Below are positions 4,339-6,982 of a DNA stretch of 6,982 nucleotides, in pieces (positions within the stretch are counted from its first letter, which is position 1; every line of letters starts with the position of its first letter). The position numbers and the translations under genes were made by a program. Source of the DNA: a virus (lineage: Duplodnaviria > Heunggongvirae > Uroviricota > Caudoviricetes). The notes beneath the pieces are model-generated. The model did not search any database and had not been told where the DNA came from. It saw nothing but the letters and a program-made list of their open reading frames with translations. The stretch lies in IMG/VR virus record IMGVR_UViG_2547132417_000010. One strand, written 5' to 3'.

Positions 4339-6564
4339 ATGACAAAATATACTTTTGCTTTTCCGTGGAATGCCCCACGGTCGGCAATAGTCAGTCCATA
4401 TCTTACCTACGACCAACAGTATCGCCGCGACCGTATGTTCGCGGCTTTGCTGCATGCGAAAAAGGTGCTTTCTCTCCAGCCCGACTGCGTGCGGTTAGAT
4501 GTTTATCGCACTGCTGCGGTGCTGGAGCAAAATCAGGGCAGTCAACGAACCAATGCCTTTTTAATCAGCTTCTGCAAAAAGGAATTGCCGCGTCTTGAAC
4601 TGGTCGCAAAAAAATACGAATGCGCGGGTATCAACAGCAATGTATCAACCGCTGTTTTTGGAGGTCATTTTGATACCCAGCTTATGCAATATCTGGCGTC
4701 TCGCATGGTTAATATGGTCGCCCGATATAACCGCCTCCCGGACATGTCGCGCGCTGATGTTGACCTGTTGGCCGCTGATATTGCTAATTTCATTCGTGGT
4801 GAACTTGCCAACATTGATGACAACGGATTCGGCGAGCTTAAAACGCTGTACACCTGGTATATCCGTGCTGGCTTTATTTCCCTCCAATTCAACGTTATCC
4901 CACCACATTGGGATCGGGTTGCAAAAAAATATGTCGGCGCGGATGAAATCGCACCGGCTATCGCCAAGATGTTTAACGATGGGTGGTGGCGTGGTCGTTT
5001 GCGCCGTGTTGCGGCTACTTGGCGCGAACACCTGCAAATTGCAGTCGGCAACGTCAGCAAGAAAAAAAACACCTACGCGAGTAAAAACTGCGTGACTGAC
5101 TGGCGTGAACAAAAGCGCCGCACTCGTGAATTTCTCAAAGGTCTGGATCTCGAAGACGAAGACGGCAACCGTATCAGCCTGATTGAAAAATATGATGGCT
5201 CAGTTGCTAACCCTGCCATTCGCCGCTGTGAGCTCATGACCCGCATTCGTGGGTTTGAAAACATCTGTAATGAGCTCGGTTATGTTGGTGAGTTTTACAC
5301 TCTAACCGCGCCGTCAAAATATCACGCCACGACTAAAGCCGGGTACCGTAACAGCAAATGGAGCGGTGCTAGCCCGGCTGACACGCAAAACTATCTAACC
5401 GGTATCTGGGCGCGTATCCGTGCCAAACTGCATCGGGAAGATGTCCGTATTTTCGGTATTCGTGTCGCCGAACCCCATCACGACGGCACTCCACACTGGC
5501 ACATACTGATGTTCATGCTGCCGGAAGATGTTGAATATGTTCGATCCATCGTCCGTAAATACGCATGGAAAGAAGACCGCCACGAACTGAAAAGCGATAA
5601 AGCCAAAAAAGCACGTTTCCACGCCGAGGCCATTGACCCGGAGAAAGGCAGCGCAACCGGCTATGTTGCTAAATACATCTCAAAAAATATCGACGGTTAT
5701 GCTCTCGATGGTGAAACCGATGATGAAAGTGGTGAACTGCTGAAAGAGACAGCCCCCGCCGTTTCAGCATGGGCAGCGCGCTGGCACATCCGTCAGTTTC
5801 AGTTTATCGGTGGTGCGCCGGTGACGGTCTACCGTGAGTTGCGTCGCCTCGCTGATACCGAAACCGCGCACGGCCTGAGCGTTGAGTTTGCCGCCGTCCA
5901 TGATGCCGCCGACGCAGGTGACTGGGCTGGTTATGTTAATGCGCAGGGTGGGCCGTTTGTCCGTCGCGATGATTTACAGGTGCGTACACTGTATGAACCC
6001 CGTACCGAGCTTAATCAGTACGGTGAGGAAACGGTATGTATTAAGGGGGTCTACGATTCCTCCATAGGTGCAGGAAGCCCGATTTTAACCAGGCTTACTC
6101 AGTGGAAGATTGTTCCGAAGCGTGCTGTTGATTTGGCCGTTGACCTTCAGGACGGCAAAGCCGTCCCTCGGAGTTCTGTCAATAACTGTACGGGAAGCGA
6201 AAGCGATCCACCGATACTGGATTTAACAAAACCACTGAGTCGGCGTGAAAGACGAGAATTGACCAACCGACTCAGGAAGCAAAAGCCAGCAGCACGGCGA
6301 AAATTCATCCACGGAACGGATGAGCAAAACGCAGCTATAGCTAAAACTATCGACGAAATACATCTGACAACCGGCATTAATATCAGCCGGGGCGAAGCCC
6401 TGCACCTGATGGCCGGTGGTAAAAGTTGTTTTGATGGTAAATGGCTACGCGGAACGGCCAAAGGAGAAATATTTTCCGCAGCACCATCGCATGAGGCTAA
6501 AGCTCGGAAAATCCTTAATCGTGTTGCGGCGATGGCTGAAGCATCAAAACCAATACATAAGTAA
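4339..6564 (+). CDS. Rolling-circle replication initiation endonuclease (P2 gpA family, HUH superfamily), 741 aa
   Basis: HUH motif TPHWHILMF (His codons at 5494..5496 and 5500..5502) and double-tyrosine motif YVAKYISK (Tyr codons at 5662..5664 and 5674..5676), as in the phiX174/P2 A-protein active site. Size and position after the TraR-like gene match P2/186 gene A. Start codon is uncertain: the GGAG at 4324..4327 is 11 nt from the ATG at 4339. Confidence 0.85.
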   Translation: MTKYTFAFPWNAPRSAIVSPYLTYDQQYRRDRMFAALLHAKKVLSLQPDCVRLDVYRTAAVLEQNQGSQRTNAFLISFCKKELPRLELVAKKYECAGINSNVSTAVFGGHFDTQLMQYLASRMVNMVARYNRLPDMSRADVDLLAADIANFIRGELANIDDNGFGELKTLYTWYIRAGFISLQFNVIPPHWDRVAKKYVGADEIAPAIAKMFNDGWWRGRLRRVAATWREHLQIAVGNVSKKKNTYASKNCVTDWREQKRRTREFLKGLDLEDEDGNRISLIEKYDGSVANPAIRRCELMTRIRGFENICNELGYVGEFYTLTAPSKYHATTKAGYRNSKWSGASPADTQNYLTGIWARIRAKLHREDVRIFGIRVAEPHHDGTPHWHILMFMLPEDVEYVRSIVRKYAWKEDRHELKSDKAKKARFHAEAIDPEKGSATGYVAKYISKNIDGYALDGETDDESGELLKETAPAVSAWAARWHIRQFQFIGGAPVTVYRELRRLADTETAHGLSVEFAAVHDAADAGDWAGYVNAQGGPFVRRDDLQVRTLYEPRTELNQYGEETVCIKGVYDSSIGAGSPILTRLTQWKIVPKRAVDLAVDLQDGKAVPRSSVNNCTGSESDPPILDLTKPLSRRERRELTNRLRKQKPAARRKFIHGTDEQNAAIAKTIDEIHLTTGINISRGEALHLMAGGKSCFDGKWLRGTAKGEIFSAAPSHEAKARKILNRVAAMAEASKPIHK

Positions 6565-6654
6565 TTCATATCCATATCATGCACATACAGCAATCGCTCT
6601 ATTCGTTTTTTTTCTTCCCATCTTTTGCCAATACGTGCTACTGTATAAATATGG

Positions 6655-6680
6655 GTCTTCCCCGATCATGGTGGGAAGAC
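6655..6680. repeat. Inverted repeat (8-bp stem GTCTTCCC / GGGAAGAC, 10-nt loop) abutting the transposase-like stop codon
   Basis: 6655..6662 is the exact reverse complement of 6673..6680. No T-run follows on either strand, so it is not a classic intrinsic terminator; it may be part of an IS terminal structure. Confidence 0.4.
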
Positions 6681-6982
6681 TCAGTACGCCATATTCAGTT
6701 TCCCATAGTGGAACATAACTCCCAGTTTAAAGCGTTCCCGGTTTCGGTATCCCCTGGCCTTTATCCTCAGCAGTCTGATCTTGCTGTTCAGCGCCTCCGC
6801 ATTTCCATTCGAGACGCGATGACGCATTGCATTCAGTATTCCGTATAACCGTTTTTTAATGGTTTTCGCTGCGTTTTTCATCATCGGCACATCACATTCA
6901 GACGCCAGCGATATCCACTGCAACCAGTCATTCCTGCGTTCTGTGCTCCAGGGGCGATCCCAGATATTTTTTGCCAGCTCTT
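6681..6982 (-). CDS. ISL3-family-like transposase, C-terminal portion (frame open to the window end; N-terminus outside window)
   Basis: Minus-strand frame is open from 6982 down to the TGA at 6681..6683 and translates ...ELAKNIWDRPWSTERRNDWLQWISLASECDVPMMKNAAKTIKKRLYGILNAMRHRVSNGNAEALNSKIRLLRIKARGYRNRERFKLGVMFHYGKLNMAY. The segment SNG.AE.LN.KI......ARGYRN.E.F resembles the conserved C-terminal signature of ISL3-family transposases from memory; unverified. Confidence 0.5.
   Translation of the reverse strand, partial: ELAKNIWDRPWSTERRNDWLQWISLASECDVPMMKNAAKTIKKRLYGILNAMRHRVSNGNAEALNSKIRLLRIKARGYRNRERFKLGVMFHYGKLNMAY

Follow-up and report, generated by a model that had tools for sequence, protein, structure and literature searches.

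What occupies the position directly downstream of gene A in this prophage, and how did it come to lie there? The question arises in a 6,982-nucleotide stretch of DNA assigned to the Caudoviricetes (IMG/VR record IMGVR_UViG_2547132417_000010; hereafter the window), near the end of which gpA, the gene for the replication endonuclease, stops at 6564 and is followed by 116 bp (6565-6680) that are non-coding, without a convincing open reading frame (ORF). Behind these lies the 3' end of a minus-strand gene that runs off the window (6684-6980, stop codon 6681-6683), and the 99 residues it encodes match the C-terminus of DDE_Tnp_ISL3 (PF01610, E=2e-20). The original prediction had described both the non-coding stretch and the transposase fragment as we find them, and had interpreted the locus as the anti-phage cargo slot that carries tin and old in P2, invaded or replaced by an insertion sequence (IS). 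Our analysis points elsewhere. Window positions 6653-6982 are very probably the right end of the ISL3-family element ISEc53, which occupies the middle of an SOS promoter's LexA operator, a site that is the preferred target of the clade to which this element belongs. The locus itself is a further copy of a known IS; what appears to be new is the SOS-operator target.

The insertion site downstream of gpA

The source of the window and its relatives were found by look-up with the 741-aa gpA ORF (709 aa with an NCBI-style start), whose DNA shares 98-99% identity with E. coli prophage genes named 'replication endonuclease'. The window is the entire draft contig APZL01000010.1 (L127), which has repeats at both ends; its left end stops in ISEc52, and its right end falls inside ISEc53 because ISEc53 is itself a repeat. 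The complete chromosome CP189652.1 (L125) matches the whole window with 0 mismatches and carries the full IS. Contig AQFE01000032.1 (L126) matches window positions 1-6652 with 0 mismatches and lacks the IS, providing an isogenic empty site.

In L126 this empty site reads TACTGTATAAATATACAGTA. The intact operator, TACTGT-ATAAATAT-ACAGTA, is 20 bp long, fits the classical CTGT-N8-ACAG pattern of SOS boxes and is the sole CTGT-N8-ACAG in the 18.5 kb of L126. Both L126 and the 99%-identical L002 have it in the context ...TTCCCA-N18-TACTGTATAAATATACAGTA-N13-GGGAGGG-N6-ATG, a LexA-box promoter with a perfect 20-bp box directly downstream of gene A, as in phage 186. ATAAATAT is present as a single copy in L126 and flanks the 1,885-bp IS on both sides in L125; the 8-bp target duplication for which the original prediction proposed to look is found, with one copy at 6645-6652 and the second in L125, and the missing ACAGTA half lies past the far IS end, outside the window. 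The coordinates of the -10 element, the box, the duplication and the IS start (Table 1) therefore place the IS in the exact centre of the operator, with the 8-bp spacer as the duplicated segment. Since the cuts fall between CTGT and the spacer on each strand, each junction keeps one half-site only, and neither junction rebuilds a box.

This placement is further supported by comparison with phage 186. The site aligns almost base-for-base with the annotated p95 -35, -10 (TACTGT) and LexA site of 186, whose GenBank record gives a LexA binding site upstream of tum ('expression repressed by LexA; inhibits CI DNA binding'). The 186 SOS operon (p95, LexA site, tum, orf97) lies in the same place after gene A, with nearly identical -35, spacer, -10 and LexA half-sites, and the CI repressor of 186 is of the same type as that of the window phage. 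This homology suggests that LexA binds the window box as well. The operon of the window phage differs from that of 186 in opening with a separate 60-aa ORF, in having no orf97 and in being cut off from the promoter by the IS.

Independent insertions at the same base pair are found in related prophages, where ISKox3, a relative of ISEc53, occurs in both orientations and with the duplications ATAAATAT and ATAAACAT. In E. coli ET490 (L003) the 1,316-bp ISKox3 occupies this position, oppositely oriented and flanked by the duplication ATAAATAT, and in E. coli LR-21-1 (L004) it is again found here, flanked by the duplication ATAAACAT; the gpA/IS junction region of L004 is only ~84% identical to that of the window.

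Table 1. Coordinates of gpA, the SOS promoter and the ISEc53 end in the window, with the basis of each assignment
Feature	Position	Strand	Basis
gpA, rolling-circle replication endonuclease of 186-like prophage	4339..6564	+	Pfam Phage_GPA, E=1e-130
p95-type SOS promoter: -35 TTCCCA (6615-6620), 18-bp spacer, -10 TACTGT (6639-6644)	6615..6644	+	homology to phage 186
LexA box (20 bp, interrupted by the IS), left 14 bp (TACTGTATAAATAT)	6639..6652	.	empty site L126, 186 annotation
8-bp target-site duplication, one copy, ATAAATAT	6645..6652	.	L125 vs L126
ISEc53, first 330 bp (right inverted repeat, IRR; end next to transposase C-terminus)	6653..6982	-	100% identical to ISEc53 copies
IS terminal inverted repeat with internal palindrome (hairpin)	6653..6680	.	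folding; recurs in relatives
ISEc53 transposase, last 99 codons and stop (6681-6683); 406 aa in full	6681..6980	-	Pfam DDE_Tnp_ISL3

The window phage groups with 186 and not, as had been proposed, with P2. It encodes a 186-type CI (1455-2318(-); Pfam Phage_CI_repr and Phage_CI_C) along with CII (Phage_CP76), Fil, Dhr and a TraR/DksA zinc finger, and its nearest cultured relatives are the Eganvirus phages SW9, PSP3 and 186, of which SW9 is closest and has the same gene order of A, 60-aa ORF and DinI. The supposed equivalence with the tin/old slot also falls. The P2 region likewise lies between gene A and the capsid gene block, whereas in the 186 group the position after A holds a LexA-controlled SOS operon, and tin and old are not present between gpA and portal in L125 or L126. 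Past the IS, L125 carries the 60-aa ORF, a 77-aa DinI-family ORF and ORFs of 69, 223 and 74 aa (the last a DUF2188 protein), and then portal and terminase; the gpA-portal intervals of L125 and L126 contain ORFs of 60, 77 (DinI), 69, 223/263 and 74 aa only, with none above 263 aa. The 77-aa DinI-like ORF is 47% identical to Tum residues 71-145, the C-terminal half, and the 60-aa first ORF belongs to phrog_1993, which has no assigned function.

The expectation of an ISL3-family IS just downstream of gpA was thus correct, and variable accessory genes do lie further on, before portal. They are not the point of insertion, since the IS occupies, with base-pair precision, the SOS operator that precedes the cargo. 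The true cargo interval is L125 14846-16599, from DinI to portal, with the 69-, 223- and 74-aa ORFs; it differs among relatives, with a kinase-family protein in L004 and hypothetical proteins in L003. For the defence genes that had been anticipated beyond the window end there is one candidate, the 74-aa DUF2188 protein, which matches the PADLOC candidate family PDC-S16 (1e-13). The 223-aa ORF gives only a marginal PtuB match (1e-3, PADLOC), and no recognised defence system lies in the gpA-portal interval of L125 or L126.

ISEc53, ISKox3 and their target sites

The IS DNA in the window is 100% identical to E. coli copies annotated 'ISL3-like element ISEc53 family transposase', and the name ISEc53 rests on this NCBI annotation of identical copies. 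The complete element (1,885 bp, L125 12315-14199) has 0 mismatches to a second copy (L001). Its full 406-aa transposase (L125 12343-13560) combines Zn_ribbon_ISL3 (PF14690), HTH_Tnp_ISL3 (PF13542) and DDE_Tnp_ISL3 (1e-58) and scores 328 bits on NCBIfam transpos_ISL3 (cut-off 180), and both ends begin GGGTCTTCCC...TGGTGG, forming terminal inverted repeats. In its DDE_Tnp_ISL3 domain, zinc ribbon and HTH, terminal inverted repeats and 8-bp duplication, ISEc53 has the characters by which the ISL3 family is recognised, and it shares its domain architecture, inverted repeats and duplication length with the family in general. Upstream of the transposase on the same strand, beyond the window, it carries a passenger gene for a 172-aa DUF1706 (ClbS/DfsB-family) protein (L125 13582-14100(-)), which matches PDB 5cof almost identically (E=5e-114) and ClbS, 6anr, as a clear relative (E=4e-55). 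ClbS is the colibactin self-protection protein, and the passenger is thus clbS-like, of the colibactin-resistance type. A 2025 preprint reports that clbS-like genes in E. coli adjoin a single ISL3 transposase and makes no mention of SOS or LexA (10.1101/2025.11.17.686825). ISKox3, also of the ISL3 family, has 84.5% DNA identity to ISEc53 over transposase and IRR, the same terminal repeats, the 8-bp duplication and the SOS-box target. It is 1,316 bp long and has no passenger, lacking 636 bp, with the clbS-like gene, at the left inverted repeat (IRL) side of ISEc53. An internal LexA box that might place the transposase under SOS control was looked for in ISEc53 and ISKox3, and none was found.

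IS ends of this clade were gathered by pattern scans of one-genome-per-species contigs and of viral contigs. The first pattern, GGGTCTTCCCNNNNNNTGGTGG, run on the genome contigs, was too loose (~25 real IS ends in 120 loci, the rest mostly chance in GC-rich genomes); a tighter pattern on the viral contigs was clean. CTGT stands at -12..-9 from the IS end in 87 of 101 unique 24-bp flanks and at neighbouring offsets in 0, and the flanks that bear it come from prophages, plasmids and chromosomes. The flank logo, TACTGTATATATAT (T-A-C-T-G-T-A-T-A-T-A-T-A-T), fits the left half of the LexA-box consensus TACTG(TA)5CAGTA; a consensus box is TACTGTATATATATACAGTA. Clustering by the 40 nt outside the box yields 86 flank clusters with unrelated outer sequence, and CTGT is found at -12 in 71 of them, with a one-base variant in 10 and no box in five; CTGT has a background frequency of 0.5% in those outer flanks, which gives a binomial P of about 1e-155. 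The 8-mers that abut the IS are of 56 different kinds.

Complete insertions give the same picture. Twenty-three of 28 unique ones have identical duplications on both sides, and a perfect CTGT-N8-ACAG is rebuilt in 21 of these 23, the other two being ATGT..ACAG and CTGT..ACAT. ISEc53 copies elsewhere occupy other SOS boxes, one between a tail-fibre gene and an 85-aa ORF (L001), CTACTGTATAAATAT-IS-ATAAATATACAGTT, and another in a lambdoid prophage (L197), TACTGTATAAATAT-IS-ATAAATATACAGG. The orientation of the IS relative to the SOS gene shows no bias (22 vs 16). In two loci (L142 4410-5725 and L186 601-1916) a complete ISKox3 has an SOS half-box on each side with differing 8-bp 'duplications', which suggests that IS copies residing in different SOS boxes have recombined, an IS-mediated rearrangement between two such operators.

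These observations show that ISEc53 and ISKox3 insert almost only into CTGT-N8-ACAG SOS boxes, a preference that is strong and not absolute. Marine gammaproteobacterial relatives with very similar ends (L026, L033, L084, L120) have AT-rich flanks without CTGT, so that the specificity looks restricted to the enterobacterial clade. Descriptions of the ISL3 family are not known to go beyond an AT-rich target preference. In the open-access literature searched, we found no SOS or LexA box given as a target of ISKox3, ISEc53 or any ISL3 member, and homing of an ISL3 clade to SOS operators appears to be undescribed so far.

To judge from their sequence context, the boxes that are hit are real SOS operators. 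ORFs reading away from the IS start ~30-80 bp from the box, typically with a ribosome-binding site, and among 38 representatives these neighbours include DinI (5), UmuD/S24 peptidases (3), phrog_3893 (10), phrog_1993 (3) and an anti-repressor phrog (2). The phrog_3893 members, the most frequent neighbours, are 79-aa prophage proteins (MPRxxDI...ANxWI) encoded ~30 bp from the box, for example in L157, L138 and L082, and are candidate LexA-controlled antirepressors. Plasmids carry equivalent insertions. On the IncX3 blaNDM plasmid pEc-MW07_NDM the arrangement is GCTGTATGCATAT-ISKox3-ATGCATATACAGT, directly upstream of a 79-aa ORF and then an S24/umuD gene, and on an IncF plasmid ISEc53 (duplication ATGTATAT) lies in a box directly upstream of a DinI-like gene and umuD. 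ISKox3 beside umuD on IncX3 blaNDM plasmids is routinely drawn in the resistance-plasmid literature; this junction is one SOS-box insertion, which provides a base-pair-level account of the split or truncated umuD region next to the element.

Target recognition and its consequences

How, then, is the recurrence of the SOS box to be explained? The view that the IS landed by chance in, or replaced, a variable anti-phage cargo slot like P2 tin/old, with no choice of site, can draw on the variable small genes that occur between the DinI-like gene and portal in relatives (L003, L004, L125). However, the insertion lies in the operator centre upstream of these genes, three independent IS insertions in related prophages share one base pair, and the same box is found at 71 of 86 unrelated sites, with tin and old absent, so that we give this view very little credence. 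Selection in place of targeting, with near-random insertion in AT-rich DNA and persistence only of those insertions that silence SOS genes, is marginally less implausible and still improbable. There might plausibly be an advantage in shutting down an antirepressor or a plasmid umuDC-type operon, and the integrase of the window prophage is already broken, so induction would be lethal to the host. Yet selection for silencing would accept an insertion anywhere in the promoter or gene, whereas those observed are always centred, with the spacer as duplication, and neither the fixed offset of CTGT nor the balanced orientations would be expected from it. That the CTGT flank is part of the element, as a longer terminal repeat, or that all copies descend from one ancestral insertion, might be read from the many E. 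coli ISEc53 copies with the identical flank TACTGTATAAATAT. The chance of this is negligible: the empty site holds the full box without the IS, the abutting 8-mers are diverse and the outer flanks unrelated, the spacer is repeated on the two sides in direct and not in inverted orientation, as duplication predicts, and the IS copies are nearly identical and their flanks diverse.

Targeting of the box leaves the question of what reads it. We infer that the palindrome itself is what the transposase, alone or in a complex with LexA and DNA, recognises. Choice of target through LexA bound to the operator, as a tether and without direct reading of the palindrome by the transposase, is unlikely and yet the most serious of the alternatives. 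Over ~14 positions per half the insertion logo agrees with the LexA consensus, the TA outside CTGT and the alternating AT spacer among them, and the majority of sites are genuine promoter operators adjoining SOS genes, as tethering would lead one to expect; a logo equal to that of LexA is compatible both with direct reading and with a LexA tether or licence. Against tethering, one insertion lies at a box-like site without an obvious promoter, and CTGG/CCAG half-sites are rare among the sites hit (2 of about 100). LexA tolerates such half-sites in many E. coli chromosomal boxes, as lists of SOS boxes show. The unoccupied boxes in the same loci, nine perfect and seven variant in 745 kb, are too few to calibrate LexA-guided against sequence-read targeting.

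For the window prophage, the proposed course of events is that ISEc53 transposed, with an 8-bp duplication, into the operator centre of the homologue of p95, the promoter that drives Tum in 186. The -35 and -10 elements and one half-site would have stayed on the gpA side, pointing into the IS and antisense to the transposase gene, and the 60-aa/DinI operon would have been left, at a distance of 1.9 kb from its promoter, with the ACAGTA half-site and one copy of the spacer. The tum-like operon would thereby be severed from its SOS promoter, which itself probably loses LexA repression where it now stands beside the IS. SOS induction of 186 depends on LexA-controlled Tum, and CI is inactivated by this antirepressor and not via RecA-stimulated self-cleavage. 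Hence a prophage unresponsive to DNA damage would be the most likely outcome, the split box and the displaced -35/-10 presumably making it blind to SOS induction.

Several observations weigh against our overall interpretation. About 5% of the flank clusters have no box and ~12% have a one-base variant. In E. coli 120899 (L198 3020-4903) ISEc53 lies at CTGT-AAAACTTA-ACAC with no obvious promoter or SOS gene, downstream of a porin gene annotated ompC, between it and hchA, and with the clbS-like gene of the element frameshifted; this near-cognate box is a hint that targeting may need no more than the DNA sequence. ISKox3, which is experimentally active and generates 8-bp repeats, has been recovered under selection in Klebsiella capsule genes with the AT-rich duplications ATACATAT, TTATAATT and ATTTGTAA, flanks not reported (PMC12057282). 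In the prophage itself, a generic sigma-70 promoter scan does not call p95, so that this assignment rests on homology, and the 60-aa ORF shows no similarity to the N-terminal half of Tum by BLASTP, so that its antirepressor role is assumed. Generic scans of the IS find no convincing terminators or outward promoters, and the absence of terminators would suit the alternative of constitutive read-through across the IS from the promoter. Read-through, the less likely alternative, would be harmful, and the genotype exists in several assemblies.

Other elements with restricted targets are known, among them IS1397 and ISKpn1 in intergenic repeats, IS4321 and IS5075 in the terminal repeats of the Tn21 family, the 'res hunters' Tn5053 and Tn402, and Tn7 at attTn7. 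They likewise use a conserved, recurring site, often on mobile elements, as a safe and transmissible landing pad, and differ from ISEc53 and ISKox3 in their transposase families and targets. To our knowledge, none of these targets is the operator of a global stress response, and hitting them hence does not rewire a regulon. Each insertion into an SOS box, by contrast, would uncouple a gene from DNA-damage control, be it a prophage antirepressor, dinI or a plasmid umuDC-type mutagenesis operon, and in a prophage this would offer a one-step route to a lysogen that DNA damage does not induce. The clade concerned is an abundant and active enterobacterial one, with matches to the IS group in 1,329 of 5,426 complete E. 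coli genomes (about a quarter) and ISKox3-like sequence in 1,590 plasmid records (~1,600 plasmids). The copies number ~1,900 in E. coli and ~1,700 on plasmids, ~3,500 together.

Colibactin kills competitors partly by prophage induction. A colibactin-resistance-type gene on an element that would disable SOS-triggered prophage induction is suggestive, and the functional link is speculative. Bolder, and a little less probable than tethering, is a scheme in which the transposase is guided by operator-bound LexA, or licensed when LexA leaves its operators in the SOS response. These elements would then be 'SOS-box hunters' that rewire induction and plasmid mutagenesis operons, and ISEc53 would be a compact mobile module that both neutralises colibactin, by way of its clbS-like gene, and disconnects antirepressors from the colibactin damage signal. 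If a DDE transposase does read a 16-20-bp palindromic target, it would make a useful model of target-site selection.

The terminal hairpin and neighbouring genes

The perfect inverted repeat noted earlier at 6655..6680 is real, with arms GTCTTCCC (6655-6662) and GGGAAGAC (6673-6680) forming a perfect 8-bp stem around a 10-nt loop, and a 65-nt segment that includes it has a folding energy of -19.4 to -20.3 kcal/mol (z of about -2.3 to -2.5 vs shuffles). It belongs to the IS and not to the phage. The hairpin forms between the terminal GGGTCTTCCC and its inverted copy, which lies 10 nt further in and directly ahead of the stop codon of the transposase gene, and the terminal sequence GGGTCTTCCCCGATCATGGTGGGA(A)G.. 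is also found at the IRR of ISKox3 and other relatives. Its position 90 bp past the gpA stop and its perfect GC-rich stem could suggest the phage's own gpA terminator or a phage regulatory site. This has almost no likelihood, however, for neither the isogenic empty site nor the IS-free L002 contains the hairpin, which begins 2 bp into the IS, recurs at the same end of ISEc53 and ISKox3 copies in unrelated contexts, and is not followed by a T-run on the + strand. The inverted copy of the terminal 8-10 bp is present at the IRR only, the IRL end having none, and the stem measures 8 bp in ISEc53, while that of ISKox3 and others is 6-7 bp long or bulged. Its role may be that of a second binding site for the transposase, or that of a barrier to transcription.

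At the left contig end (window 1-~315 and 199-1083(-)) lies the end of a second element, the IS3-family ISEc52 (98-99.7% identity). It cuts the prophage integrase after residue 260 of 349, with loss of the C-terminal part. The same ISEc52 break is found in L125, L126 and the window, and ISEc53 in only two of these three records; the prophage was thus probably unable to excise already when ISEc53 arrived and the SOS switch was cut. Between integrase and CI, a YebY/DUF2511 gene (112 aa, window 1107-1445(-)) keeps a moron-like position that is retained in relatives. To the left of the prophage, L125 1-4531 encodes a group II intron-type reverse transcriptase (RVT_1 and GIIM), an AAA_15/AAA_21 ATPase and an ORF with an HNH hit, which may include a defence-type gene pair.

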